Positions 378 to 35,830 are shown, counted from the stretch's first letter. The stretch is DNA of 38,469 nucleotides from Bacteroidales bacterium (GCA_021107915.1 JAIORY010000219.1:1-38469); one strand, 5' to 3'. Numbers and translations: made by a program. The notes: generated by a model not told the origin, from the letters alone.

Positions 378-1481
378 ATGAAAACGACAGAAAACACAAT
401 TCCACTTTTAGCTACACATCCGGGGAAAGTTCTTTTAGATGAAATTAAAGCAAATGATTTTACTCAAAGTGATTTTGCAAAGAAAATTGGTTTAAAGAAA
501 AGTCAGTTAAATGAAATTATAAAACGGAAAAGAAATATTAATGCTGAGTTGGCTATTTTATTAGAAAAAACATTGAATATTGATGCAGAATATTGGTTAG
601 AAATTCAAAAGAATTATGATTTAGACAAAGCTCGAATTAATATTAAGAATCAGCAAAGATTAGAAGCAATTGAGCAATGGAAATTTATAGAAAACAAAAT
701 TGCCACTTCATTTTTAAAGAAAGAAAAGGTATTAAGTGGAGATCCCATTGAAGATATAATTGCCGTCAAGAAAATATATAATGTGCAAAATTTTGAAGAA
801 TTAGCCAAATTAAATGCAAAACCTGCTTACGCCAGATTTAGAAAATCAACAAAATTAGAGATTGATCCAATTAATATTATTGGGTGGGTGAAATTACTTC
901 ACTTTAATGCAAGTCGGATATTTGTTGAAAAATTTGACTACGATAAAAAAAACGAATTAATTACAAAACTTAAACAGATTTTAAGAATAAACAAAAATAC
1001 TTTAGTGACAGTACAACTAACATTAGCAGATTTTGGAATTAAATTAATCTATCAGAGAAAAGGTGACAAAACACCTGTTGATGGAATCTCTTTTTGGAGT
1101 AATGGTAGCCCGGCAATTGGCATGTCTTTAAGACATAGTAGATTGGATAATTTTGCTTTTACACTTTTTCATGAATTAGGTCATATTTTTGAACATCTTC
1201 CAAATAACAATAAAGCCGAATTTGTTGATTTAATTGCTTCCAAAGAACAAAAAGATTACAAGAAATCAAAAGAAGAGAAAGAAGCTGATTTATTTGCACA
1301 AAAAAATATGATCGAATCTAAAAATTGGAAAGTTTTCTTTCTTAATCAAAGATTTGATGATAGAAGTATTATAGAATTTGCAAAAGAAAATGAAATTCAC
1401 CCATGTATTGTCAGGGGAAGAATTTGTTTTACGACAGGTTTTTATAAAGCAAAAACATCAATTGATTATTCAATTTATTAA
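378..1481 (+). CDS. Fusion protein: HigA/XRE-family HTH domain plus ImmA/IrrE-type (M78, COG2856) zinc metallopeptidase domain
   Basis: N-terminus HPGKVLLDEI...SQLNEIIKRKRNINAELAILLEKTLNIDAEYWLEIQKNYDL is a HigA-type HTH. C-terminal part carries the HEXXH motif FHELGHIFEH followed by EKEADLFA, as in ImmA/IrrE peptidases. Confidence 0.8.
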   Translation: MKTTENTIPLLATHPGKVLLDEIKANDFTQSDFAKKIGLKKSQLNEIIKRKRNINAELAILLEKTLNIDAEYWLEIQKNYDLDKARINIKNQQRLEAIEQWKFIENKIATSFLKKEKVLSGDPIEDIIAVKKIYNVQNFEELAKLNAKPAYARFRKSTKLEIDPINIIGWVKLLHFNASRIFVEKFDYDKKNELITKLKQILRINKNTLVTVQLTLADFGIKLIYQRKGDKTPVDGISFWSNGSPAIGMSLRHSRLDNFAFTLFHELGHIFEHLPNNNKAEFVDLIASKEQKDYKKSKEEKEADLFAQKNMIESKNWKVFFLNQRFDDRSIIEFAKENEIHPCIVRGRICFTTGFYKAKTSIDYSIY

Positions 1482-1570
1482 AATAATAAATTACAAACTT
1501 TGTTCAAACATCTTCCAAATCCAGAACTCAAAACTTGCTTCTAAATCTAAAATCTAAATTCATAAATCCC

Positions 1571-1638
1571 AAATTATCTTGCCTATTATATCTTTTTTAC
1601 ATAAGTTTGTAACATAATGTGAAGTTGAAAAATTTCAG
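1571..1638. repeat. Island promoter module R2, copy a (contains -7 box TAAGTTTG at 1602-1609)
   Basis: AAATTATCTTGCCTATTATATCTTTTTTACATAAGTTTGTAACATAATGTGAAGTTGAAAAATTTCAG is about 90% identical to 3704-3771. TTG-N20-TAAGTTTG fits the Bacteroidota promoter layout. Confidence 0.75.
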
Positions 1639-1772
1639 GTAATTAATTGCGAACTACTTTATTGGTTTTTTATAGAGAAAAACTACAATTTACTACAATC
1701 CAATTACTACAATTTATACTGATTTGTGAAAAGGATAATTTGAGTTTTTTAATATAGGTAAAAAATAATAAA

Positions 1773-3428
1773 TTGAGAAACGAAAAAAACATTAAAGACA
1801 TATTACGAGATTTGCTAAGTCAAGATTATGAAAATGAGATATTAGAATTTAAGGAGGCAAAAAACGGATATGATTTCAATAGACTCGGAAAGTATTTTTC
1901 TGCACTTTGCAATGAAGCGAATTTAAAAAATCAATCCCCTGCTTGGTTGGTTTTTGGTGTAAGAGATAAAAATAAAAAGATTATTGGCACTCAATTTAGG
2001 ACGAATAAAGCAAACCTGCATAAATTGAAAGCAGAAGTTGCAAATCACACTACCAACCGCATTACTTTTATAGAGATATATGAGTTTAACACACCAGATG
2101 GTAGAGTTGTTTTATTTGAAATTCCTACCGCTCCGAAAGGTATCCCTGTTTCATGGAAAGGCCATTATTACGGTAGAGATGGAGAAGAACTTAATGCCCT
2201 AAATCTGGAAGAAATTGAACGAATACGTATGCAATCCAACGAGGAAGATTGGAGTATTAAAATATGCAAAGGTGCTGATTTAAGAGATTTATCACAGGAA
2301 GCTATTTTAAAAGCTCGTTCTAATTTTAAAACTAAAAATCCAAATCTAAACAAAGAAATAAACAATTGGGATGATATTACATTTTTAAATAAGGCAAAAG
2401 TATGTATTAAAGGAAAAATTACTCGTGCAGCGATTTTACTGCTTGGTAAGTCTGAATCAGAACATTTCATTTCTCCTGCCACAGCTAAAATTACATGGAT
2501 ATTAAAAGACAGGGATAACATAGAAAAAGATTATGCACACTTTACCTGTCCTCTTCTTTTGAATACTGAAGAAGTTCATCAAAAAATACGAAATTTAAAA
2601 TATCGTTATTTGAAAGAAGGAACACTTTTTCCTGAAGAAGTTGATCAATTTGATTCTTACATTATTCGTGAAGCTTTGAATAATTGTATTGCACATCAAG
2701 ATTATTCTTTAGGTGGAAAAATTTCTGTAATTGAAAATGAAGATGGCAATTTGATTTTTAGTAATGCTGGTAAGTTTATTCCTGAAAGCGTCGAAGAAGT
2801 AATTATTTCTGATTCGCCTGAATATAGGTATAGAAATAAATTTTTAACAGATGCAATGGTCAACTTAAACATGATAGATAGTATCGGTAGTGGAATAAAA
2901 AAAATGTTTAATATTCAGAAAGAAAAGTTTTTTCCATTACCTGACTACGAGATAAAGAATAATAAAGTGAAGGTACGTTTTGTAGGTAAAGTAATGGATG
3001 TTAACTATGCCAGAAAATTGGTTACTATGCCAAACTTAAATTTATTGGATATCATTTTACTTGATAAAGTAGTTAAAAGAAAAACTTTATGTAATATTGA
3101 AATTAAACATTTGAAAAATAAAAATTTAATAGAAGGACGAAAACCTAATTTTTATGTTTCTATGTCTGTGGCAAAGGCTACTGGAGAACAGAGTGATTAT
3201 ATTAAACAGAGAGGTATTGATGATGAATATTGTCAAAAGATGATTTTGGATTATTTGAAAGAATTTGGCAAAGGAAAAAGTTCGGATTTTAAAAAAGTTC
3301 TTATTGACAAGTTATCAAATTCATTAAATGAAAAAAGGAAAGTTAATAAAATTAGAAATGTTTTACAGAAGCTTAGAAAAGATGGAAAAATAGTTATTAA
3401 GGGAAAGTATTGGAAAATTGCTATTTAG
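1773..3428 (+). CDS. AlbA_2 (Schlafen-like DNA-binding) plus HATPase_c_4 plus C-terminal wHTH protein, usually annotated as putative transcriptional regulator or RecG-like ATP-binding protein
   Basis: N-terminus ENEILEFKEAKNGYDF...WLVFGVRDKNKKIIG fits the AlbA_2 pattern. The central part IIREALNNCIAHQDYSLGGKISV...IDSIGSGIKKM fits HATPase_c_4. TTG start with no in-frame ATG upstream of the domain. Confidence 0.7.
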   Translation: MRNEKNIKDILRDLLSQDYENEILEFKEAKNGYDFNRLGKYFSALCNEANLKNQSPAWLVFGVRDKNKKIIGTQFRTNKANLHKLKAEVANHTTNRITFIEIYEFNTPDGRVVLFEIPTAPKGIPVSWKGHYYGRDGEELNALNLEEIERIRMQSNEEDWSIKICKGADLRDLSQEAILKARSNFKTKNPNLNKEINNWDDITFLNKAKVCIKGKITRAAILLLGKSESEHFISPATAKITWILKDRDNIEKDYAHFTCPLLLNTEEVHQKIRNLKYRYLKEGTLFPEEVDQFDSYIIREALNNCIAHQDYSLGGKISVIENEDGNLIFSNAGKFIPESVEEVIISDSPEYRYRNKFLTDAMVNLNMIDSIGSGIKKMFNIQKEKFFPLPDYEIKNNKVKVRFVGKVMDVNYARKLVTMPNLNLLDIILLDKVVKRKTLCNIEIKHLKNKNLIEGRKPNFYVSMSVAKATGEQSDYIKQRGIDDEYCQKMILDYLKEFGKGKSSDFKKVLIDKLSNSLNEKRKVNKIRNVLQKLRKDGKIVIKGKYWKIAI

Positions 3429-3542
3429 AATATTTTTAAATAAAATTAGCTATACTTTTAGAAAAACACTATTGGCATTCCTATATAAAAAACATGTAAT
3501 ATAAAGGTAAACAGTAAAATAAGGGGCTATTCAAATGTGAAT

Positions 3543-3582
3543 AAAATTGCTATTTAGAATGTGTTTAGAATAAATTTAGTCA
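3543..3582. repeat. Duplicate of the 3' tail of the 1773-3428 gene (remnant of a lost paralogous cassette?)
   Basis: AAAATTGCTATTTAGAAT (last codons KIAI plus stop) at 3414-3431 recurs exactly at 3543-3560. Similarity continues for about 20 more nt. Confidence 0.6.
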
Positions 3583-3610
3583 TTTTAAAGTTTTGTTATA
3601 TAAAAATTTA

Positions 3611-3705
3611 CAGAATAAGATTGTAATTGTTTTTTTTACATTTATCATTATTGAGGAAATGTAGAATTTAAAATAATAAATGACAAACTTTCTTCTAAAT
3701 CTTAA
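3611..3705. repeat. Island junction repeat R1, copy b
   Basis: Direct repeat of 171-264, here contiguous with R2. Confidence 0.9.
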
Positions 3706-3771
3706 ATTATCTTGCTTATTATATCTTTTTTACATAAGTTTGTAACAGAATTTGAAGTTGAATAATTTCAG
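3704..3771. repeat. Island promoter module R2, copy b (contains -7 box TAAGTTTG at 3735-3742)
   Basis: Same 68-nt module as 1571-1638, about 100 nt upstream of the TIR gene ATG. Confidence 0.75.
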
Positions 3772-3840
3772 ATATACTAATCTTAACAGATATGCAAAGC
3801 AATAGCTGCTCAGAAGTAGCTGGCACAAATTAGAAAACCT

Positions 3841-4692
3841 ATGGAAAACCAAGAATTTAAATACGATATAGCATTATCATTCGCAGGTGAAGACCGCGAG
3901 TACGTAAACAAAGTAGCAAATTTGTTAAAAGAAAAAGACGTCAAAGTTTTTTATGACTTGTTTGAAGAAGAAGATTTATGGGGGAAGGATTTGGGTGTTC
4001 ATTTTGACTTTGTATATCGAAAAAGCGCACGATATTGTATACCATTTATTTCATCTAGTTACAAAGAAAAAATTTGGACTAGTCATGAAATCAAAACTGC
4101 AATATCAAGAGCCATAGAATCCAATCACGAGTATATACTTCCTGCAAGATTTGATAACACCGAAATAGATGGCATTAGACCTACTTTAGGCTTCATTGAC
4201 CTCAGAAAAAACACACCAGAACAACTAGCCAATAAAATCTTAAAGAAGCTTGAAAAGGAACCTTCTATACCTGTAACTGAAAAAGAACAAGAAACAGATG
4301 GAAACATTTTTGCTTCAGTTTATGTCATTACATACGACCAAGTGAACGTTCATGAAGTATCAATAGGTGTTACAATGACGAATGTAATGAAGGAACATAG
4401 ATATTTTAATGAACCAAGCTTCTTGCTATCTGAGGCTGTGATTGGCAATGCAGACGCCTTCTATTTAATAGATAAAATCGAACCAATTAAATTCCCTATA
4501 AAACTTGAATATGGTGAGGTAGCAAAAGCTTCTTATAGATTAAAATATGAATCAAAAGATGGTTTTTGGGAAAAACTTTCAAAAGACGCATTTTTCCAAG
4601 CTGAAGTAACAACTACTGTTGGAGAAAGGTATAAATCAAATAAGGTAAAAGCCCAAATGGTATTAGATTCTTTTGGAATGATAAAAAAATAA
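3841..4692 (+). CDS. TIR-domain protein (TIR_2/ThsB-like N-terminal domain, about 140 aa) with an unassigned C-terminal domain of about 130 aa
   Basis: YDIALSFAGEDREYVNKVANLLKEKDVKVFYD...IPFISSSYKEKIWTSHEIKTAI is a bacterial TIR signature, including the conserved Glu (E83 in WTSHE). I cannot assign residues ~155-283 to any family. Confidence 0.8.
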   Translation: MENQEFKYDIALSFAGEDREYVNKVANLLKEKDVKVFYDLFEEEDLWGKDLGVHFDFVYRKSARYCIPFISSSYKEKIWTSHEIKTAISRAIESNHEYILPARFDNTEIDGIRPTLGFIDLRKNTPEQLANKILKKLEKEPSIPVTEKEQETDGNIFASVYVITYDQVNVHEVSIGVTMTNVMKEHRYFNEPSFLLSEAVIGNADAFYLIDKIEPIKFPIKLEYGEVAKASYRLKYESKDGFWEKLSKDAFFQAEVTTTVGERYKSNKVKAQMVLDSFGMIKK

Positions 4693-12930: not shown

Positions 12931-13890
12931 TTACACTTTTAATAAAAATGGATGATAGTCGCCTTTAATACCAATGGGTTTGGCATTTCTGATGTAGTGG
13001 ACTGTTTCTATGGTATTTCTGGATTCTTCTATGCCATAACCGTTTCCCTTTAAAATTTTCTGGTAACTAATTGTATGAAGATCGGTAAAACCGCCACTAA
13101 ATTCTATTTCTTCGTTTGCAACTGTTGCCGAGCGATATGTTCTTTGTCCTTGTTTTGCTAATTCTGTTGGAATGAATTTTGGGTCAAGGCTTAAAAACCA
13201 TCGTACTCTTGCTTTTTCGGTTTGTATGAAACCGGCGGCAGTATTTGGTTTTGAATAATGAACGATATTTTGTTTTACTTTTCCAAAAACATTTGTGATC
13301 ATATCAAAAAAATGTACTCCAATATTTGTTGCAACACCACCTGATTTTTCAATATCTCCTTTCCACGACATAAAATACCAATGTCCGCGGCTTGTAATGT
13401 AGGTCAAATCAATATCATAGATTTTATCTTTGGGTCCATTATCAATTTTTTCTTTTAATTTTATTATTGAAGGATGAAGTCTTAACTGTAAAATGTTATA
13501 GATTTTTTTCCCGGTTTCCTGTTCTATTTCCTGAAGTGCATCAACATTCCATGGGTTAAGCACTAATGGTTTTTCACAAATGGCATCTGCGTCATTACGG
13601 AGAGATAAACGAATATGAGCATCATGCAGATAATTAGGAGAACAGATACTTACATAATCAATTTTTCTTTTACCTTGCCTTCTGAGTTTATCTAAATGCC
13701 GGTCGAATCTTTCAGGTTCTGTAAAGAAATCAGCTTTCGGGAAATAACTGTCGATAATTCCAACACTATCAAATTTATCAAGAGCTGCTACAAGATCGTT
13801 ATTTGTATCTTTTATTGCTTTCATGTGGCGTGGGGCGATATAGCCGGCTGCGCCTATGAGAGCGAAGTTTTTTTGGTTGTGTGGTGACAT
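12931..13890 (-). CDS. Gfo/Idh/MocA-family oxidoreductase (WbpB-like sugar-nucleotide dehydrogenase)
   Basis: N-terminal Rossmann motif FALIGAAGYIAPRHMKAI and EKPL block (ICEKPLVLN). Sits in a polysaccharide locus. Confidence 0.7.
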   Translation of the reverse strand: MSPHNQKNFALIGAAGYIAPRHMKAIKDTNNDLVAALDKFDSVGIIDSYFPKADFFTEPERFDRHLDKLRRQGKRKIDYVSICSPNYLHDAHIRLSLRNDADAICEKPLVLNPWNVDALQEIEQETGKKIYNILQLRLHPSIIKLKEKIDNGPKDKIYDIDLTYITSRGHWYFMSWKGDIEKSGGVATNIGVHFFDMITNVFGKVKQNIVHYSKPNTAAGFIQTEKARVRWFLSLDPKFIPTELAKQGQRTYRSATVANEEIEFSGGFTDLHTISYQKILKGNGYGIEESRNTIETVHYIRNAKPIGIKGDYHPFLLKV

Positions 13891-13896
13891 GTTATG

Positions 13897-13937
13897 TTTG
13901 AGTTTTGAGTTGTCAGTTATCGGTTATCGGTTATTGG
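13897..13937. repeat. Heptamer tandem array (GTTATCG/GTTGTCA units), left flank of four-helix-bundle gene 1
   Basis: GTTGTCAGTTATCGGTTATC (13909-13928) is the perfect reverse complement of 14346-14365. The array fills the 40-nt gap to the next gene. Confidence 0.9.
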
Positions 13938-14299
13938 TTTGTTTTCCAGTTTTTTCTTACATATTCAATAAATGCAAAAATTTGTTTTCCCAAATCATCA
14001 TATTTCTTAAAAAAAACTTTATCTTCATCCAAATTATACAGAACATCCATCATTTCAATATGAGATTGTGTTTCAAGACAATATGAATATGCATAAGTTA
14101 AAAACTTAATAAATTCATTCTTATAGATTTTTCTACCATATCCTTCAATAATATTACTTCTAACACTTTGTGCAGATCTTCTAATTTGAGAACCTAATTC
14201 ATAAAGTTCATATTTAGGCATTTTAAAGGATAAGTGATGTGTTTTGATTGCCATTTCAAAGGCATCATTATAAATATTTAAATCTCTATAACTTTTCAT
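13931..14299 (-). CDS. Four-helix-bundle protein (23S rRNA intervening-sequence protein / TIGR02436, Avd-like family), copy 1
   Basis: SYRDLNIYNDAFEMAIKTHHL...LGSQIRRSAQSVRSNIIEGYGRK...FLTYAYSYCLETQSHIEM matches the family pattern as I recall it. Confidence 0.8.
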   Translation of the reverse strand: MKSYRDLNIYNDAFEMAIKTHHLSFKMPKYELYELGSQIRRSAQSVRSNIIEGYGRKIYKNEFIKFLTYAYSYCLETQSHIEMMDVLYNLDEDKVFFKKYDDLGKQIFAFIEYVRKNWKTNQ

Positions 14300-14313
14300 T
14301 TAAATATAAATTT

Positions 14314-14380
14314 AACTGACAACTGACAACTGATAACTGACAACTGATAACCGATAACTGACAACTGACAACTGATAACA
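14314..14380. repeat. Heptamer tandem array (CTGACAA/CTGATAA/CCGATAA x9), right flank of four-helix-bundle gene 1
   Basis: Nine consecutive 7-nt units filling the whole gap between the wzc-like stop (14384) and the 4HB start (14299). Inverted relative to the left flank. Confidence 0.9.
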
Positions 14381-14383
14381 CTT

Positions 14384-16855
14384 CTAATACTTATTAAAAA
14401 CCCTCTTCCAAAACGAAGTTTTTTCTTCTTCTTTATCATCGGAATAATACCCATATCCGTAGCCATACCCATATCCGTAACCATATCCGTACCCATAACC
14501 GTATCCGTAACCATATCCGTAGCCATAAGAATCTTTGCTAAGTTTTACATCATTAATTAATATGCTGACATTTGGCATTTCTCTTTTTTCAACATCTTTA
14601 ATTATTGACTCAAATATTTTTTTGTTTGTATAGTTTTGTCTTACAACGAAGAGGTTAACATCAGTATGTTCCATTAAAAGGAAGGCATCGGTAACAAGTC
14701 CTACCGGAGGTGTATCTATAATAATATAGTCATACTTTTCTTTTAATTTTTTAAACATCTCTTTTGTCTTATCCGATGCTATTAATTCGGCGGGATTTGG
14801 AGGAACCGGACCTGCCATTATAATATCAAGATTTTCGACAGGAGATGTTTGAATAATATCTTCAAATTTACTTTTGTTGATGAGATATGAACTGAGACCT
14901 TCAGTATTTGTCAAACCGAAATCCTGATAAATTTTAGGTTTACGAAGGTCGAATCCGAGAAGAACAGTTTTTTTATCAAATTGGGCAAATATGGATGCCA
15001 GATTGATTGCAATAAAAGTTTTTCCGGCAGCTACCATATCCGAAGTAACCATTATTACTTGTTTGTCTTTTCCCTTTCCGAGATATTGAAGATTGGTTCT
15101 TACCGATCTGAATGACTCGGAAATAGAAGATTTTGGAGATTCGGCAACTACAACCTTGCCTTCTTTGGTACTGTGAATTATATGTCCTGCAATTGGGAAA
15201 TTAGTTATCTTTTCTACATCTTTTCGTTCAATAATTTTATCATTAAAATAATCTTTACCAAAAACATAAGCAATAGGAATGATAAGACCGATTATCAGGG
15301 CAATCATATAATTCAGGCTTTTCTTTGGATAAACCGGAGTTAAACCCTCTTCTCTTGCGATATCAATTATTTCGTTATCCGGAAGATTTGATGCTTTGGT
15401 AATCTGGGCTTCCGAACGTCTTTCGAGAAGATAAGTATAAATAGCATCATTAAGTTTATATTTTCTTTCGATAGTAATAAGCTGACGCTGGGTTTTTGGT
15501 AATTTGCTTATTCTTTGAGTAAGTTCAGATAAACGTCTATTAATATCTTTTAATGCAATATCAGAAGTTTCAACAATATTATCAATATTTTCGATAAGAG
15601 CTTTTTTAGTATTATTGATCTTTTGATCAAGGATAATTATTAAAGGACTCTTTATTGTAGAACTTAATAATGTTTCTGCTCTTTCGGAATAAAATTTTGA
15701 TAATTCAATAACCAGATTATTAACCATAGGGTCTTCAATTCCCATAGATGAAGGAACAACCATATCTTCAACATTATCTTTGGTTTTCAGATAATTTTTA
15801 AGATTTTCATAATATTTAGATTTGATTATCAATACTGCTTTTTCATCTTCAAGCTCTTTCATGTATTCAAAAACCTGCTGCGCCTGAAATTCCAAATCCA
15901 TTATTTCATTTACAGTACGATAATCCTGCAATCTTTGTTCTGTACTACGTAATGAATCCGTAATACCAAGCAATTCATTATCAATAAAATTAATAGTATT
16001 AATAGCGATCTTATTCTTTTTTTCCAGTCCGCGATTTAGATATTCTAACGTTAAAGCATTTAGGAAATTAACAGATTTTTGAATATTATTTCCTTTTAAA
16101 GAAATTTTAACAATACTTGCTTCACGGTTTATAGGTTCAATCCCAAAACCCCTAAATTGACCAACAAGACTCTCAAGACTATTAAAAGTAAAAGAAATAT
16201 TTTTCTTTAGATATTTTTCTTTATCATATTTTTCATTTAAGAGAACTTTAAACTTAAAACCATTACTTTTAATGGTTTTTCCAAAATTAAATTCTTTACT
16301 CAGAGATAATTTTTCGATCTCCTTTTCTGAATATTCATAATTTTTAAAATCATAAAGTTTAACTTCTTCGGCATTAACTTCAAGATGAAATTTTTTATCT
16401 GATAAAATGTTAATATTAAAAGAAATTCCTGTTGATTGTGGAAAAGCGGTATCTATAATAACAGTAATAGGAGAAGTTTGATAAAGTTCTTTTGTAATGA
16501 ATTTATCTTCAAAAAAATAAGAAATATTAAAATCAAGATTTTTAAGGGTTCTGTATGTTAATGAGTATGATTGTAATATTCCTATTTCGTTTTCGAGATT
16601 TTGTTGTTCTTTACCCATTCCAAAACCAATAAGTGATTGTGCATCAAATGAAGATTTGTCATCTTGAATTAAAACGGTAGAATTGACTTCATAAACAGAA
16701 GCTGTATATTTATTAAAAACAAAAGCAATAATCAAAGTAATAAAAATTGTAAGAGCAAACAGATACCAATATCTGTAAAACTTAAAAAACAAAGCTTTAA
16801 TGTCTATTGATTCTTCCTGTGGTTGAAAGTCTTGAATATTATTTATATTTTCCAT
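14384..16855 (-). CDS. Polysaccharide co-polymerase / BY-kinase (Wzc-like tyrosine autokinase)
   Basis: N-terminal Wzz/GumC-type TM domain, long coiled region, and a C-terminal P-loop (VTSDMVAAGKTFIAINLA, DYIIIDTPPVG). Ends in a tyrosine cluster. Confidence 0.85.
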   Translation of the reverse strand: MENINNIQDFQPQEESIDIKALFFKFYRYWYLFALTIFITLIIAFVFNKYTASVYEVNSTVLIQDDKSSFDAQSLIGFGMGKEQQNLENEIGILQSYSLTYRTLKNLDFNISYFFEDKFITKELYQTSPITVIIDTAFPQSTGISFNINILSDKKFHLEVNAEEVKLYDFKNYEYSEKEIEKLSLSKEFNFGKTIKSNGFKFKVLLNEKYDKEKYLKKNISFTFNSLESLVGQFRGFGIEPINREASIVKISLKGNNIQKSVNFLNALTLEYLNRGLEKKNKIAINTINFIDNELLGITDSLRSTEQRLQDYRTVNEIMDLEFQAQQVFEYMKELEDEKAVLIIKSKYYENLKNYLKTKDNVEDMVVPSSMGIEDPMVNNLVIELSKFYSERAETLLSSTIKSPLIIILDQKINNTKKALIENIDNIVETSDIALKDINRRLSELTQRISKLPKTQRQLITIERKYKLNDAIYTYLLERRSEAQITKASNLPDNEIIDIAREEGLTPVYPKKSLNYMIALIIGLIIPIAYVFGKDYFNDKIIERKDVEKITNFPIAGHIIHSTKEGKVVVAESPKSSISESFRSVRTNLQYLGKGKDKQVIMVTSDMVAAGKTFIAINLASIFAQFDKKTVLLGFDLRKPKIYQDFGLTNTEGLSSYLINKSKFEDIIQTSPVENLDIIMAGPVPPNPAELIASDKTKEMFKKLKEKYDYIIIDTPPVGLVTDAFLLMEHTDVNLFVVRQNYTNKKIFESIIKDVEKREMPNVSILINDVKLSKDSYGYGYGYGYGYGYGYGYGYGYGYGYGYYSDDKEEEKTSFWKRVFNKY
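14444..14527 (-). repeat. Coding hexanucleotide repeat giving (YG)13-YY in the Wzc-like C-terminal tail
   Basis: 78 nt of imperfect CCATATCCGTA-type hexamers translate to 13 consecutive Tyr-Gly pairs followed by YY. Confidence 0.9.
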
Positions 16856-16878: not shown

Positions 16879-17667
16879 TTATTTAAAGAAATTTATTAAG
16901 AGTAAAGTAGTTGAAATTGCTGAAAATATTGTTGCATAAGGGAATTCGGCAAAAGTAAATTGTTTTCCTTTAAGCGGTTCAATATAAATAATATCGTTAG
17001 GAACTAGATAAAAATAATCTGATTCCAAAATGCTGGTACTTGTAAGATCAAGCCGGTGTATTTCAGAACCGTTTTTTGTTTGACGAACAAGGACAATGTT
17101 TTTTCTGTCGGCGAATGTGCCAAGATCGCCTGCTAATGAAAAGGCTTCAAAAATATTTATGGCATCCTGATATATTTTATACTCACCCGGCCGACTAACT
17201 TCACCAAGCATGGTTATATAGAAATTAACCAGTTTTACGATAACAGTGGATTCTATAATATATTCACTAAGTTTTTCCTGAACCGCATTTTTAGTTTCTT
17301 CAAGTGTCAGATTTTTAATTAGAAGTTTTCCAATTAAGGGGAAATCAATAAATCCATTATCATCAACGGTATAACTGTTAAGATATACACTTATGTCATT
17401 ATTCATATATTGCTGGCTATATTGTGATTCAGCATTAAAAATAGAATTAGCTTTTTGATTTATGCTGGATATTTTAATATAGAGATTATCTCCGGGCTGT
17501 ATTGTATAGTTGATTTTTCGAGGATTTACAAATTTGGTTTTTGCTATTGCATCTGAGGTTTGCTGGAGATATTTTATTTTTTTCTGAGGTACACAGGAAG
17601 AAAAAAGAACAGTAACAATAAGCAAAATTAAAGGTGTTTTTAGAAAGATCAGATTGAGTTTTTTCAT
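16879..17667 (-). CDS. Polysaccharide export outer-membrane protein (Wza/BexD-like)
   Basis: Lipoprotein-type signal (LFSSC), a Poly_export-type block (YTIQPGDNLYIKI) and an SLBB-like repeat (GEVSRPGEYKI). Confidence 0.75.
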   Translation of the reverse strand: MKKLNLIFLKTPLILLIVTVLFSSCVPQKKIKYLQQTSDAIAKTKFVNPRKINYTIQPGDNLYIKISSINQKANSIFNAESQYSQQYMNNDISVYLNSYTVDDNGFIDFPLIGKLLIKNLTLEETKNAVQEKLSEYIIESTVIVKLVNFYITMLGEVSRPGEYKIYQDAINIFEAFSLAGDLGTFADRKNIVLVRQTKNGSEIHRLDLTSTSILESDYFYLVPNDIIYIEPLKGKQFTFAEFPYATIFSAISTTLLLINFFK

Positions 17668-17824
17668 ACGAATTTCATTATTTGTTAGATATATATCTAT
17701 TTATATAGAATTAGCAAAAGTAAGACAAAAGTAAATTACTTTTCAAAACTATTGAAAATATTTTAAAATTGTTCAAATTTTTTACTCAAAATCGGGTGAT
17801 GGATGCTTGATACTGGAAAAAATG

Positions 17825-22247: not shown

Positions 22248-22389
22248 ATGAAATTTTAGATTTATGATTTATGATTTTAGATTTTTATTTATCAATCTAC
22301 TGATAATAAGCAATATTTTAAAATCTTAAATCTGAATTCTTAAATCTAAAATTGTTTGAACAAGACTTTATGGACAGACTCTAATTAAT
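22248..22389. repeat. Palindromic intergenic element, partial copy
   Basis: About 75% identical by eye to 10476-10617, including ACTTTATGGACAGAC (22365-22379) and CTAATTAAT. It lacks the left GTCTGTCCATAAAGT end and starts right after the topA stop. Confidence 0.75.
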
Positions 22390-26213: not shown

Positions 26214-26768
26214 TTGAAACCCGATAAAATCATATTAGGCATCGACCCAGGCACAAATATTATGGGTTACGGAATAATCCACAATAAAAATAATAAGATT
26301 GAACTTATTACCATGGGGGTTATAAAATTAGGAAAATATTCTAATCATGCCTTAAAACTAAAGAAAATTTTTGAAAGAGTATTAGCATTAATCAAAGAAT
26401 ATAAACCGGACGAACTGGCAATTGAGGCTCCGTTTTTTGGAAAGAATGTGCAGTCGATGCTTAAACTCGGGCGGGCACAGGGAGTTGCGATGGCTGCCGC
26501 ATTATATCAGGACGTGCCAATATTTGAATATTCGCCTAAAAAAATTAAACAATCGATTACCGGAAATGGAAATGCTTCAAAAGAACAGGTGGCAGCTATG
26601 CTTATGAGTCTTATAAAAATCACAGAAGCTCCGGAATTTCTCGATGCTACTGATGCTTTGGCTGCGGCTGTTTGTCATTATTTCCAAAAGAATATTGGTG
26701 ATGATGGAGATAAATATACCGGATGGAAGAGTTTTGTTAATAAGAATCCGGGAAGGGTGAAGAAATAA
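26214..26768 (+). CDS. ruvC: Crossover junction endodeoxyribonuclease RuvC
   Basis: [31 protein letters not shown] and [12 protein letters not shown] catalytic blocks. TTG start. Confidence 0.85.
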
Positions 26769-26794: not shown

Positions 26795-26939
26795 TAATTG
26801 TAATTAATCGTAATTGATGGTAATTAGTTGTAATTAATTGTAATTGATGGTAATTAATGGTAATTGGTTGTAATTAATTGTAATTGATGGTAATTAATGG
26901 TAATTGGTTGTAATTAATGGTAATTGGTTGTAATTTGAT
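26795..26939. repeat. Decamer tandem array (AATTNNNNGT x about 14), left flank of four-helix-bundle gene 2
   Basis: Strict 10-nt periodicity (aattgatggt aattaatggt aattggttgt ...). GTAATTAATGGTAATTGGTT (26909-26928) matches the reverse complement of 27365-27384 at 19 of 20 positions. Confidence 0.9.
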
Positions 26940-27296
26940 TTATTGTTTTGGACCAATTGTTTTTATATAATTATTAATTTTTATACCAATTATTTCTAAT
27001 TTGTTTAATAACTCATTGGAAACATCGTTTGAGATTAATTTTCGATTTTTAGCTTTTGTTATCCATGTTTTAGTTTCAAATAGCGAACCTCGTGCATAAT
27101 AACTAAAATTTTTTCTTTCCTTGTAATGATATCTACCGATGCCTTCGCTTAAATTTGCTGCAATAGAGTCTGCTGAACGGACAAGTTGTTTTCCTGAAGT
27201 ATCTTTGTCAAAGTAATCCCATTTAATAACATTGGAATAAACTAATTCACCCAAGTCCATTGCAAGATTGTAAACATTAAAGTCTTCTAATTTCAT
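26940..27296 (-). CDS. Four-helix-bundle protein (23S rRNA IVS protein / TIGR02436 family), copy 2
   Basis: FNVYNLAMDLGELVYS...GKQLVRSADSIAANLSEGIGRYHYKERKNFSYYARGSLFETKTWI. Start preferred at MKLEDF (27296) rather than the ORF-track start at 27353. Confidence 0.8.
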   Translation of the reverse strand: MKLEDFNVYNLAMDLGELVYSNVIKWDYFDKDTSGKQLVRSADSIAANLSEGIGRYHYKERKNFSYYARGSLFETKTWITKAKNRKLISNDVSNELLNKLEIIGIKINNYIKTIGPKQ

Positions 27297-27353
27297 TGTT
27301 AATATATTGTTATAATTAGTAAAAAAAATGATTGATTTTGTTGTAACTGCCAT

Positions 27354-27428
27354 AAATTACGTGTAACCAATTACCATAAATTACGTGTAGCAAATTACTA
27401 CAAATTACAGCTTAGCTAAATTACCATA
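27354..27428. repeat. Right flank of four-helix-bundle gene 2 (ATAAATTACGTGTA / CAAATTAC units), inverted relative to the left array
   Basis: AACCAATTACCATAAATTAC (27365-27384) is the inverted partner of 26909-26928. ATAAATTACGTGTA occurs twice. Confidence 0.85.
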
Positions 27429-27430
27429 TT

Positions 27431-28090
27431 TTAAAAAAATGCCTTCGCAATTTTAATATCTGCCTGTCTTGTGATTTTTATGTTTTCGGGATTTCCTTCA
27501 ACGAGGTTAATTTTTATTCCGGTGGATTCTACAACACTTGCATCATCGGTAAAATCTTCACAGAAATCTTGTTTGTAAGCTATTTTTATTTGTGATGAAC
27601 GAAATATTTGAGGAGTTTGAACTATCCTGAAATTTTCTCGGTCAGCTGGTAAATTTTGTGAATTTTTTATTTCTCTTATAGATTCATTAATTGTAATAAC
27701 GGGCACAGCATTTCCCAGTTTTTCGGCAGTTTCAAAACAATTTCTGATTACTTCTTTTTTAACAAAAGGTCTAACACCATCATGAACTGCAATTAAACAT
27801 TCTTCACTAATTACAGATAATCCGTTTTTAACCGACTGAAAACGTGTTTCACCTCCTTTAATAAGTTGATGAGGGATTTGAAAATTATATTTTTTACATA
27901 ATTCATCCCATGTTTCAAAAGATGTTTCCGGTAGTACGAGAACTATTTTAATTTTATTGGAATAATCAAAAAAAGTATTTATTGTATGCATCAAAATAGG
28001 AAGATTGTTCAATAAAATAAATTGTTTGGGTATTCCGGCATTCATTCTTTTGCCGCTTCCTCCGGCTGTTACTATGATGAATTTTTTCAA
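27431..28090 (-). CDS. ispD: 2-C-methyl-D-erythritol 4-phosphate cytidylyltransferase
   Basis: IIVTAGGSGKRMNAGIPKQF N-terminal motif and VAVHDGVRPFV block. Confidence 0.85.
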   Translation of the reverse strand: MKKFIIVTAGGSGKRMNAGIPKQFILLNNLPILMHTINTFFDYSNKIKIVLVLPETSFETWDELCKKYNFQIPHQLIKGGETRFQSVKNGLSVISEECLIAVHDGVRPFVKKEVIRNCFETAEKLGNAVPVITINESIREIKNSQNLPADRENFRIVQTPQIFRSSQIKIAYKQDFCEDFTDDASVVESTGIKINLVEGNPENIKITRQADIKIAKAFF

Positions 28091-28145
28091 ATAGTATAGA
28101 TTATTAACATTTTTTTGAATATGAAAACAAGATTTTTGGTTTTGT

Positions 28146-28189
28146 GTTTCGAGTTTATAACCTTAAACTTCAAACTCAAAACTCGAAAC
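28146..28189. terminator. Hairpin GTTTCGAGTTT-N22-AAACTCGAAAC between queA and ispD
   Basis: Perfect 11-bp stem inside a low-complexity AAACT/CAAAC-rich block, 30 nt downstream of the queA stop on the minus strand. Confidence 0.4.
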
Positions 28190-28218
28190 CTAAAACTTCA
28201 TCTACTTTTGTTCTTGCT

Positions 28219-32236: not shown

Positions 32237-35200
32237 CTAAACAACAATATTTATTATTCTTTTCGGAACGACAATTATTTTTCTCGGCGTTTTTCCCTCA
32301 ATCCATTTCTGAGCTTCTTTTGCTTCAAGTGCTGCTTTTTCTATTTCGTCTTTTGGCATGTCAACCGGTAACTCAAGTTTAAAACGCATTTTACCATTAA
32401 ACGAGACAGGATAAGTAAAAGTATTTTCTGCTACAAAATCTTTATTGAATTCGGGATACTTTGCCTTAGTGATGCTTTTTTCGTTACCGAGTAGTGACCA
32501 TAATTCTTCAGCAATATGAGGTGCATAAGATGAAACCAAAATTGCAAGCGGTTCCAAAATTTCTCTTTTGTTACATTTAAGATCAGAGAGTTCGTTTACG
32601 CAAATCATAAAAGTACTGACCGCCGTATTAAAAGAAAATCTTTCAATATCGTCCTTAATTTTTTTAATGGTTTTATGTAAAACTTTTAATTCTTCCTTTG
32701 AAGCTTTTGCATCTGAAACATCAAAATTATTTGATTCATTATGATATAATCGCCATAGTTTTTTAATAAATCTAAAAACTCCTTCTATACCTTTTGTGTC
32801 CCAAGGCTTGTGTGTTTCAAGTGGTCCAAGAAACATTTCATATAATCTGAGAGTATCTGCACCATATTCGTCAATTAAATAATCAGGATTTTGAACATTG
32901 TGTTTGGATTTTGACATTTTTTCGACCTCCCAGCCGCAAATATATTTCCCGTCTTCGAGAATAAATTTTACATCATTATATTCTGATCGCCACTTTTTAA
33001 ATTCATCAATATTCAAAATATCATTATCAACTAAATTGATATCAACATGTAGTGGAGTTGAAAATAATTGTCTGTCTTTTACACCATGCGAAACAAATAA
33101 TGGTTTGAGATCACGAACTTCGTGGTGATTAAAAATAACCCCTTTTTCTTTATGTTCAAGTGCTTCAATGGTTTCATCAATTACTGCTTCGATGTTTTCA
33201 ATAATATCTGCAATAGGAATAAGAATTAATTTTTTATTTGTTGTTTTGATGTACTCTTTATAAAAAGACTCAAGTTTTTCAAGTTTTTTCTGGCTTCTTA
33301 TCTCAACAATTAAATTCTCCTTTTTATTATAGAAATCAAATCTCCTGTGACCATCTTTATAATTTCTTATAAACTCATGTTCTAATTTGTTTTTTTTAAT
33401 GTACTCCCAAAGTAAATACTCGGCATATTTTTCCATATTTACTCTATAAACAAAACTGCTTCTTCCTTGTATTTTGCCTTGGTTAATAAGTTTTTTATAG
33501 GGTTCATCTTTACAAACCATTCCTATATCGAATAAAAATTTGTTCCAGAAACGAGAATAAATTAAATGCCCGGTTCCATGCTCGTCCCCTCCAATGTAGA
33601 GGTCAACATCTTGCCAGTATTGATTTGCTTCTTTCGAAAAATATTCTTTATTATTTTTAGGATCCATATAACGAAGATAATACCCGCTTGATCCTGCAAA
33701 GCCGGGCATGGTGTTGGTTTCGAGAGGATAGCCGTCTTTTGTTTTCCAGCTTTTAGCACGTGCCAAAGGTGGTTCTCCGCTTTTTGTCGGCAGATATTTA
33801 TCAACTTCGGGAAGTTTGAGGGGAAGTTCTTTTTCGTCCAGAACGTAAGGCACCCCATCTTTATAATAAACAGGAAACGGCTCGCCCCAATATCGTTGTC
33901 TGCTAAAAATTGCATCACGGAGCCGGTAATTAATTGTTCCGTAGCCTGCATTTTTTTCTTCAAGTTTTTTAATAACTGCTTTAATGGCATCTTTTACTTC
34001 CATCCCGTCAATAAAATCTGAATTCATCATTTTGCCGGTTTTGGCATCATAAGATTCTTCAGAAATATCACCACCCGAAACTACCTGAATAATTGGAATG
34101 TCAAAATGTTTTGCAAAAGCATAGTCGCGGCTATCGTGTGCCGGCACTGCCATAATTGCTCCTGTTCCGTATCCGGCAAGAACATAATCTGCAATCCAGA
34201 TAGGGATTTTTTTTCCGTTAAGGGGATTAATTCCATAAGCTCCTGTAAATACACCTGTGATATTTTTTACTTCTGCCATTCGTTCTCTTTCCGAACGGTT
34301 TTTAGCTCTGGTAACATACTCATCAACTTTTTCTTTCCTTTCGGGAGATGTAATTTTTTCAACAAGTTCGTGCTCAGGAGCAAGAACCATATATGTGGAA
34401 CCGAATAAAGTATCGGGGCGGGTTGTGAAAACGGAAACCCCACCTAAATCCTCCCCAACCCCACCTAAATCCTCCCCATAGGGGAGGACTTTGTTATCTA
34501 AATACTTTGTAATTTTATTAATTACTTCATCAGTATTTGTTACAACTTCATTATTAGAAAAACGGATGACTGAAAATCCAAGTTTATTTAAAATTTCAGT
34601 TCTTTCCTGATCTTCTTCAATTTGTGTATCATGAATTTTACCATCAATTTCAATAATGGTCATTTTTTCTAAACAAACGAAATCAACAATAAATTTATTA
34701 ATAACATGCTGTCTTCTAATTTTGTAGCCAATTTGTTTTTCTCTTAATCTTTCCCAAATAATTGATTCAGCTTCAGTTGGATTTTTCCTCGCTTCCTTAG
34801 CTTTTTCTTTTAATAAAGCCCACATTTGAGAATCAGTATTATAAAACGGAGGAATATCTTTTTCTACAAAATAAATAGAACTTTTTTCTCCCTCCCTATT
34901 GGGGAGGGTTGGGGAGGGGTGTTTTTTTTCCCCCTCCCCAATGGGGAGGGCCGGGGTGGGGTGAAATCTCACCATCGCTCCTTCGCTTCTACCTATCCAA
35001 TTTCTTTGAACTTCTTTTAACGAATCTGTCCAGTCAACTGTTTCCAGCCCGTCAAGTAATCTTTGAGCATAAGCGGTAATTCTCAACGACCATTGTTTCA
35101 TTAATTTTCGTTCAACAGCATGCCCGCCTCTTTCCGAACAACCGTCTTTCACCTCATCGTTTGCAAGAACGGTTCCTAAATCAGGACACCAGTTTACCAT

Positions 35201-35830
35201 GGTTTTTGAAATATATGCAAGACGATAATTTAACAATATTTCCTGTTGTTGTTTTTCGGTTTTCGATTTCCATTCTTCAGCCGAAAAAATTTCTGTTTCA
35301 TCACAAGCTGCATTAATATTTTTGTTTCCTGAAGTTTCAAAATCTTTTATTAGTGAGCCAATTGATTGAGCTTTATCCTTATTTTTATCATACCACGAAT
35401 TGAATAATTGAATAAAAACCCACTGAGTCCATTTGTAATAATGAGGATCGCAAGTTCTTACTTCCCTGTCCCAATCATAAGAAAAGCCAATATTATCAAG
35501 CTGCTCTCTGTATTTTTCAATATTTTTATTAGTTGTAATTTCAGGATGTGTTCCCGTTTGAATTGCATATTGTTCAGCCGGCAGACCATAAGCATCAAAT
35601 CCCATAGGATGTAGAACATTGAAACCTTCTAATCGTTTGTATCTTGAATAAATATCCGATGCAATATATCCTAATGGATGACCAACATGTAATCCTGCCC
35701 CCGAGGGATAAGGAAACATATCGAGAACATAATATTTAGGTTTGTTGTGATCGATTTCTGCTTTGTAGGTCTTATTTGTACTCCAGTACTTTTGCCATTT
35801 TTTTTCTATCTCTCTGAAGTTATATTCCAT
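32237..35830 (-). CDS. leuS: Leucine--tRNA ligase carrying two in-frame endonuclease-like insertions (1197 aa)
   Basis: [16 protein letters not shown] (HIGH), [18 protein letters not shown] and KMSKSKHNV (KMSKS) are all present and colinear. About 290 extra residues lie in two blocks. Confidence 0.9.
33101..33439 (-). other. In-frame degenerate DUF559-like module inside leuS (about aa 798-910), between FVYRV and LFVSHG, upstream of KMSKS
   Basis: [44 protein letters not shown]...[22 protein letters not shown] is colinear with the intact module at 34436-34963. Both have the same 24-residue W-to-DF spacing, IVEI against IIEI, and [13 protein letters not shown] against [12 protein letters not shown]. 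Confidence 0.55.
34436..34963 (-). mobile_element. In-frame DUF559 (Vsr-like PD-(D/E)xK endonuclease) cassette with GC-rich hairpin flanks inside leuS (about aa 290-464)
   Basis: [83 protein letters not shown] is a full DUF559 signature. Flanks are a 21-nt tandem CCCCACCTAAATCCTCCCCA(A) x2 (34438-34478) and hairpins at 34470-34488, 34890-34908 and 34932-34950. Confidence 0.8.

Follow-up and report, generated by a model that had tools for sequence, protein, structure and literature searches.

What is a small gene, enclosed by complementary repeat arrays, doing between two genes of a polysaccharide operon? The question is raised by a 38,469-nucleotide stretch of DNA from a Bacteroidales bacterium (GCA_021107915.1, JAIORY010000219.1:1-38469; hereafter the window), in which a gene for a four-helix-bundle (4HB) protein of family PF05635 stands between a wzc-like gene and an oxidoreductase gene and is flanked on either side by arrays of a seven-nucleotide repeat, one complementary to the other. 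An initial annotation of the locus likened it to the intervening sequences (IVSs) of 23S rRNA. We find that the cassette lacks the 23S location and has every other structural mark of an IVS, and that its excision is suggested by likeness to the rRNA elements. The explanation we favour, and hold to be reasonably probable, is that an IVS-type cassette, consisting of a PF05635 gene and inverted heptamer arms, sits in the exopolysaccharide operon, is read through, and is probably cut by RNase III.

The cassette and its operon

The 493-nt gap between the wzc-like stop codon and the dehydrogenase (oxidoreductase) start codon is filled by the 4HB gene and its flanks alone, and the coordinates and content given in the initial annotation were correct (Table 1). 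Heptamer arrays had been claimed on both sides. The upstream (5') arm is indeed a long array, with 9.4 units of 7 nt at 88% matches by Tandem Repeats Finder (TRF), and begins 4 nt past the wzc stop codon. The downstream (3') arm is shorter and more degenerate than had been implied; of its roughly six units, four are good (GTTGTCA, GTTATCG twice, and GTTATTG in the complementary sense) and two read GTTTTGA. The first unit of this arm supplies the stop codon of the 4HB gene, arm and gene end overlapping, and the oxidoreductase ATG lies 6 nt beyond the arm's end. The window contains 18 phased triplets of the form GTT-N4-GTT-N4-GTT where 0.33 would be expected, so that the arrays exceed chance, and 12 of the 18 fall within the wzc-side cassette.

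The inverted pair originally described at 13909-13928 and 14346-14365 is complementary at every position and can be lengthened to 21 bp, within wider arms that are complementary over 39 nt at 85%; the pair and these arms provide the long enclosing stem that is required of an IVS element. The arm-arm duplex has a calculated energy of -43.1 kcal/mol, compared with -12.5 +/- 3.3 for shuffled sequences, and in the minimum-energy fold predicted for a 516-nt stretch the ORF (open reading frame) is closed by the arms (z = -4.4). An Rfam scan of the window returned no family at all: no rRNA, and no known RNA family at the arms. A role in defence was considered and rejected after a PADLOC scan gave no match.

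The encoded protein is a clear member of its family, which goes by the names '23S rRNA intervening sequence protein' and 'S23 ribosomal protein', with matches to PF05635 (2e-22, 79.8 bits; cut-off 33.8) and TIGR02436 (7.6e-24, 84 bits; cut-off 24). Its AlphaFold model consists of four helices (mean confidence, pLDDT, 94.6), and the best Foldseek matches in the PDB are the family's two solved members, 2GSC (TM score 0.87-0.93; profile match 2.6e-14), which is a Xanthomonas 4HB protein, and 2RLD (TM score 0.72-0.83). Both entries contain five chains. The ratio of nonsynonymous to synonymous substitution rates (dN/dS) relative to the ortholog in locus L019, introduced below, is 0.12, which indicates purifying selection on the protein. 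PF05635 as a whole comprises 23,759 clusters at 50% identity.

On the minus strand wza is followed by wzc, the cassette, the oxidoreductase gene and a NusG-like gene, and relatives of the oxidoreductase are named UDP-N-acetyl-2-amino-2-deoxyglucuronate dehydrogenase by JGI. Neither a terminator-like site nor a Bacteroidetes-type promoter motif was found between wzc and the oxidoreductase gene. A promoter belonging to the 4HB gene itself was rejected: a sigma-70 scan gave no more matches than in shuffled sequence, and the gap holds no Bacteroidetes-type motif. Because motifs of that type occur on the operon strand only upstream of wza, and no terminator intervenes, the cassette is most likely transcribed by read-through, likely from the promoter upstream of wza.

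The locus in relatives and the cassette across genomes

The window is part of a 105-kb metagenome contig of a Bacteroidota organism. Syntenic relatives, ranked by the identity of their oxidoreductase to that of the window, showed four states of the site. In L005 and L007 (oxidoreductase 79-81% identical) wza and wzc are followed directly by the oxidoreductase gene, across spacers of 156 and 217 nt that hold no 4HB gene and no arrays; these are the empty sites for which the initial annotation had suggested looking. A Saprospiraceae metagenome-assembled genome (L019; oxidoreductase 87.5%) carries an orthologous cassette with a 4HB protein 83% identical to that of the window. It has about three repeat units upstream and about ten downstream, and the arms are still complementary at 24 of 25 positions, which speaks against the alternative, raised at the outset, that the flanks would be non-complementary in all relatives. 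In the clade comprising L004 and L008-L018 (oxidoreductase 87%), most of wza, all of wzc and the adjacent 5' arm have been deleted, and in L004 the orthologous 4HB gene is a pseudogene. Finally, the closest relative (L002; oxidoreductase 93%, NusG-like protein 89%) carries another 4HB gene at this point, 44% identical, and the heptamers that follow it differ from those of the window (CAACCAG/TAACAAG). The cassette has been gained or lost, and replaced, at one site. A single Flavobacterium site common to 12 species behaves comparably, with 4HB identity (59-93%) uncoupled from neighbour identity (77-93%) and heptamer type tracking the 4HB clade.

All homologs at least 83% identical to the window 4HB protein are orthologs at this one locus; they give no indication of recent transposition, and we rejected recent movement of the window cassette on this ground. 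Two further models of insertion were also rejected. A miniature inverted-repeat transposable element (MITE) or other transposon with terminal inverted repeats does not fit, there being no target-site duplication, no constant boundary motif and no near-identical copies (the window's own two cassettes encode proteins 34% identical). Insertion with fixed ends into the apex of a GTTAAC hairpin fails as a general rule as well: TAAC is found at the stop codon in only 25 of 80 loci, and a search for GTTAA revealed no constant left end.

The wzc-less clade presented some additional observations. The L004 pseudogene is broken at 3835-3925 by a G+C-rich palindromic, MITE-like insert of about 95 nt (CCCCGCCGCAGAGCAGCGGGG...), which resembles the palindromes flanking an insert in the leucyl-tRNA synthetase gene (leuS) of the window. 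Downstream of a miaB-like gene in the same clade (L004 3215-3440; L008 about 2620-2720), nine GTTATCG units are followed by nine ATAAATTACA decamers; the two rows do not enclose a 4HB gene, and their units match those of both window cassettes.

The initial annotation had treated the locus as a single curiosity; it is in fact one member of a very large class. We assembled 80 loci from different GTDB species whose 4HB proteins are 48-61% identical to that of the window (set 1), with ORF starts and neighbours assigned by simple rules, and called an array where at least three phased GTT or AAC units occurred within 150 nt. An earlier detector based on whole-unit identity found arrays in only 42 of the 80, the units varying outside their core, and was replaced by this phased-core test. 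The array cores were fixed after inspection of the data; set 2 and the plasmid loci described below serve as independent confirmations. Arrays were present in 72 of the 80 loci, with the GTT type upstream in 58, the AAC type downstream in 59, and both in 48. Array density was 6.2/kb in the flanks; elsewhere in these loci it was 0.18/kb, and shuffled sequence gave 0.02/kb. Of 106 other intergenic gaps, 12 (11%) carried an array. Pairs of arms from a single locus gave a better match than pairs recombined from different loci (median score 14 versus 9, p = 1e-7, a value that, like our other p-values, takes no account of shared ancestry among phylogenetically non-independent loci).

The placement of the arrays is equally regular. 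Both neighbours are co-directional with the 4HB gene in 62 of 67 set 1 loci, and the median distances are 5 nt from the upstream stop codon to the start of the 5' arm and 9 nt from the end of the 3' arm to the next start codon. The period of 7 is specific, periods of 5-6 and 8-11 being rare; a unit consists of a conserved core of 3-4 nt and variable spacers, and the median array is five units long.

Other subfamilies have the same build with other cores. In set 2, 80 metagenome loci containing relatives of the L002 4HB protein (subfamily B), the arrays again have period 7, with the core CTGG upstream and CCAG downstream. Cross-tabulating core and subfamily gave 65/75 versus 3/75 in subfamily A and 15/68 versus 42/68 in subfamily B; the repeat core co-varies with the protein subfamily. 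Homologs of the 4HB protein of the window's second cassette (subfamily C, 74-80% identical) occupy four different operons, including cysC/cysD/cysN and ugd operons, co-directionally in every case, with GTAA(T/A) upstream and (A/T)TTAC downstream about 10 nt apart; a search of viral contigs for subfamily C relatives found none. Copies on cyanobacterial plasmids have inverted heptamer arrays with units such as GGCAGAA, GGGAAAA, GGTGACA and GGGTGTG. One of these, on plasmid pANA02 of Anabaena sp. 90 (L192), carries long GGTGACA/GGGAACA arrays and lies between cas6 and cas4, which may explain the presence of PF05635 in catalogues of cas-associated genes.

Likeness to rRNA intervening sequences and rival explanations

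The analogy with 23S IVSs drawn by the initial annotation is borne out from two sides. On plasmid AZO_p2 of Azospirillum lipoferum, a 4HB ORF (tblastn match) lies inside a 23S rRNA gene, with the Rfam model LSU_rRNA_bacteria scoring 1133 bits across the locus. The ends of the insert are inverted heptamers (CAGAGGA CGGATGA CAGAGGA CGGAGGA versus TCCGTCC TCTGTCT TCTGTCA TCCGTCT), and they are predicted to pair in a stem 22 bp or more in length (z = -9). The IVS of Coxiella burnetii is 428 nt long and carries the S23p ORF within a 28-bp terminal stem; two to three tandem GACAGAT heptamers, their number depending on the strain, precede the ORF, and RNase III cuts have been mapped in the heptamer-bearing stem (Warrier et al. 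2016, PMC4990558). The window cassette shares with the IVSs of Coxiella, Leptospira and alphaproteobacteria the PF05635 protein, an ORF within a terminal stem of more than 20 bp, heptamers of variable number and a sporadic distribution. In contrast to these elements, its host RNA is a protein-coding operon transcript with no rRNA, and thus without the insertion in helix 9, 25 or 45 that marks a 23S IVS, and its arms abut a stop and a start codon, whereas the rRNA element replaces a tetraloop. In addition, S23p of Coxiella is reported to be decaying, whereas the window protein is under purifying selection.

Other known systems resemble the cassette in part. TAACTGA direct repeats in Beggiatoaceae, Cyanobacteria and some Bacteroidetes lie mostly just upstream of start codons; they were described as solitary, only one inverted repeat being reported from the Beggiatoa (BOGUAY) genome that was studied in detail, and a function in translational regulation was proposed, with no mention of 4HB or IVS proteins (MacGregor 2015, PMC4679880). 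The unit CTGAYAA of the window is a rotation of TAACTGA, its arrays vary by 7-nt indels between relatives, and its 3' arm stands in the 'forward' orientation a few nucleotides upstream of a start codon; in contrast to the solitary repeats, the window arrays are inverted pairs around a 4HB gene. In the 5' untranslated region of Haemophilus influenzae hmw1A, a transcribed heptamer array supplies one arm of a long hairpin in the mRNA, at which RNase III cuts, and the copy number of the array tunes expression (PMC12721329). There, however, the partner arm is a G-rich non-repeat, with no gene in the loop and no 4HB protein. Repetitive extragenic palindromes (REPs) and their associated tyrosine transposases (RAYTs) likewise combine a small gene flanked by inverted short repeats with solitary intergenic copies of the repeats and a family-specific pairing of gene and repeat. 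RAYTs, however, are recognisable relatives of HUH transposases, whereas the 4HB protein has no known catalytic motif, and REPs are single palindromes rather than phased arrays. Over-representation of heptamer repeats has been reported from many bacteria (PMC4692102), and Xanthomonas campestris has 70 convergent pairs of GGGAATC arrays (Rehm 2015). Heptamers within IVSs have been noted for Coxiella only, and heptamer arrays have been described without a link to 4HB proteins (PMC4679880, PMC4692102); searches of the open-access literature turned up no publication that relates flanking heptamer arrays outside rRNA to 4HB or IVS proteins, a description elsewhere being possible.

On the explanation that we prefer, the cassette would have no promoter of its own and would depend on read-through transcription that starts ahead of wza. 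Its arms would pair in the transcript as a duplex of at least 21 bp enclosing the ORF. RNase III would then cleave the duplex, as in the rRNA elements, freeing the 4HB message and separating the wzc and dehydrogenase messages, so that an insertion inside an operon would be tolerated; such cutting may uncouple wzc from the next gene, as was suggested at the start. Each 4HB subfamily appears to keep its own repeat core of 3-5 nt, the other positions of the unit drifting, and arms and gene would be inherited and exchanged as one unit. The protein most likely recognises its own arrays, because the core is conserved and changes with the subfamily, and a stem as such would put no constraint on individual positions.

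Several results weigh against this explanation or parts of it. In the L008 clade the 4HB gene is kept without its adjacent 5' arm, though it has a TTG start codon and a G55D substitution at a near-invariant glycine. In about one locus in seven, instead of split arms, there are local hairpins to either side of the gene, or the two flanks carry arrays of a single type. Arm mismatches in set 1 (38 sense-strand G.U, 70 antisense, 152 transversions) show no excess of sense-strand G.U pairs, and the energies of the sense and antisense arm duplexes are equal; complementarity could thus be kept at the level of DNA, or by common descent of both arrays. Lacking a sense-strand bias, the G.U test neither supports nor excludes pairing in RNA. 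The co-variation of core and subfamily would also be expected from co-inheritance alone. The 3' arm may serve as a leader too, given the solitary arrays in 11% of gaps and the Beggiatoaceae arrays that mostly precede start codons. No recombinase, target-site duplication or recently transposed copy was found at the cassettes examined. The resemblance of the protein to Avd, the accessory variability determinant of diversity-generating retroelements (DGRs), is also slight: PHROG 3206 ('Avd protein of DGR') matched weakly (2.8e-5) and over residues 1-52 only, and the 50 top-ranking PDB folds included no Avd structure (4DWL). A likeness of PF05635 to Avd has been stated (CDD cd16375; PMC10053308), and both are small basic four-helix bundles. 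The window, in contrast to a DGR, has no reverse transcriptase domain in any ORF scanned and no template/variable repeat pair near the cassette. Because no reverse transcriptase is nearby and the Avd similarity is weak, the cassette is not a DGR and its protein is not a DGR Avd.

How far do other explanations account for the same facts? The arms might act on DNA, as the ends or landing pads of a cassette that moves or recombines, with pairing in RNA being incidental. This account is compatible with the preferred one, and we judge it somewhat unlikely. The absence of G.U bias and the equality of the duplex energies speak for it, as do the empty, filled and replaced states of one site, the four operons occupied by subfamily C, the 20 gene-less GTT...GTTAAC...AAC hairpins of set 1, which look like empty sites, and the frequency with which contigs break at arrays. 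Yet no recombinase or transposase lies in or beside the cassettes, neither fixed ends nor a target-site duplication can be defined, and the closest homologs all sit at one locus; moreover, a pure DNA model does not predict that the neighbours would be co-oriented or that the arms would fit so tightly to stop and start codons.

Alternatively, the arrays might work as single-stranded RNA sites, the A/C-rich 3' arm as an unstructured translation leader, or the phased cores as a track that wraps an oligomeric RNA-binding protein, possibly the 4HB protein itself, to regulate the neighbouring genes. HutP and TRAP bind phased triplets by such wrapping, and the short core, variable spacers and fixed period of the units, together with a median array of five units and five chains in each of the two solved structures, are in keeping with the idea. 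So is the position of the 3' arm just before the next start codon, in the window and in set 1 alike, which it shares with most TAACTGA sets. We nevertheless consider this explanation unlikely, since it leaves unexplained the complementary GTT-type array across the 4HB gene in 48 of 80 loci, the better match of own than of swapped arms, and the occurrence of the same build inside rRNA, where no start codon follows. That the arrays are neutral, slippage-prone simple repeats that adjoin 4HB genes by accident is very improbable. Heptamers are common in many bacteria, some other gaps carry arrays, and copy number does change between orthologs; however, the enrichment at 4HB flanks (90%, versus 11% of other gaps) and the fixed orientation of the arrays relative to the gene contradict a neutral origin, as do the complementarity of arms within a locus, the subfamily-specific cores, and the recurrence of the build across phyla and inside rRNA.

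Beyond the preferred explanation, we tentatively suggest a more general one. PF05635 4HB proteins might be sequence-specific binders of phased repeats, and their cassettes a large, so far unrecognised class of selfish elements in operons and rRNA genes that are removed from the host RNA by RNase III, as a kind of 'operon intervening sequence', and spread or are exchanged by way of their arrays, with decay leaving solitary arrays behind in Bacteroidota, cyanobacteria, Beggiatoaceae and perhaps Xanthomonas. If this is true, kinship with Avd leaves room for an RNA-mediated route of spread.

Other features of the window and significance of the cassette

Table 1. Coordinates of the cassette, its host operon and similar elements in the window
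Feature	Position	Strand	Description
wzc-oxidoreductase gap	13891-14383		493 nt; contains a single ORF, the 4HB gene
Upstream (5') arm	14313..14379	-	9.4 GTTRTCA heptamers in mRNA sense; TRF, phased GTT pattern
Spacer, 5' arm to 4HB start codon	14300..14312	-	A/T-rich; without promoter motif
4HB gene	13931..14299	-	122 aa; PF05635/TIGR02436
Downstream (3') arm	13897..13939	-	About 6 heptamers: CCAATAA CCGATAA CCGATAA CTGACAA CTCAAAA CTCAAAC
3' half of perfect 21-bp inverted pair	13908..13928	.	Partner 14346-14366
5' half of perfect 21-bp inverted pair	14346..14366	.	Partner 13908-13928
wzc-like host gene	14384..16855	-	Wzc-type polysaccharide co-polymerase / tyrosine autokinase; C-terminal (YG)n tail
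Downstream host gene	12931..13890	-	GFO/IDH/MocA oxidoreductase
wza	16879..17667		
Promoter motifs upstream of wza	17715..17777	-	Two overlapping Bacteroidetes-type motifs, TTTG-N-TAnnTTTG
Second 4HB cassette	26795-27428	-	Between ispD (27431..28090, -) and ruvC (26214..26768, +)
Second-cassette 4HB gene	26940..27296	-	ORF to 27353
Second-cassette arm, upstream	27350-27428		GTAATT repeats
Second-cassette arm, downstream	26795-26935		13 ATTAC-containing decamers
Gene-less repeat hairpin	28139-28196	-	Between queA and ispD (both minus); (GTTTNNN)5 then complement
Gene-less hairpin	22255-22352		Between topA end and arginase-family gene; inverted heptamers GATTTTA/GATTTAT and AAATCTT

Two gene-less hairpins accompany the two cassettes in the window; neither they nor the second cassette figured in the initial annotation. 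That between queA and ispD (-23.9 kcal/mol, z = -2.7) resembles cassette arms without a gene; that between topA and the arginase-family gene forms a single long fold (-25 kcal/mol, z = -3.5), and its core is unlike the GTT/AAC type.

Both host genes show peculiarities where they adjoin the cassette. The (YG)n tail of Wzc, a tyrosine cluster typical of bacterial tyrosine kinases (BY-kinases), is encoded by a 6/12/18-nt DNA repeat at 14447-14528. On the other side, the first six to eight codons of the oxidoreductase gene (13870-13890) vary among the window and the relatives L002, L008 and L019 (MSPHNQ / MQKQAT / MHNHPT) and, like the adjoining array, are rich in A and C, as though the repeats continued into the start of the downstream ORF.

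Two features elsewhere in the window are recorded here. The leucyl-tRNA synthetase ORF (32237-35830, minus strand, 1197 aa) contains, just before its editing domain, an in-frame DUF559 / REase_MTES_1575 endonuclease domain (residues 341-444) bounded by G+C-rich palindromic repeats at 34436-34478 and 34882-34963; this stretch may be a mobile endonuclease insertion. At 378-4692 there is a run of defence-like genes, encoding a helix-turn-helix and M78 peptidase (IrrE-like) protein, a protein with Schlafen AlbA_2 and HATPase_c_4 domains, and a TIR-domain protein.

To our knowledge, ORF-bearing intervening sequences have been treated as an oddity of 23S rRNA, and we know of no function of PF05635 outside DGRs, nor of an accepted explanation for why several phyla have heptamer simple repeats in excess. 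The present analysis joins these three subjects, which have so far been described separately. Two predictions follow: operon mRNAs should be cut by RNase III, and the 4HB protein should bind in a repeat-specific manner. The cassettes are of practical relevance to annotation, and also to the assembly of metagenomes, since the arrays are frequent points of contig breakage. A module of gene plus inverted arrays that resides mostly inside ordinary operons, and that is gained, lost and swapped between close relatives, suggests a widespread way of segmenting operon messages.

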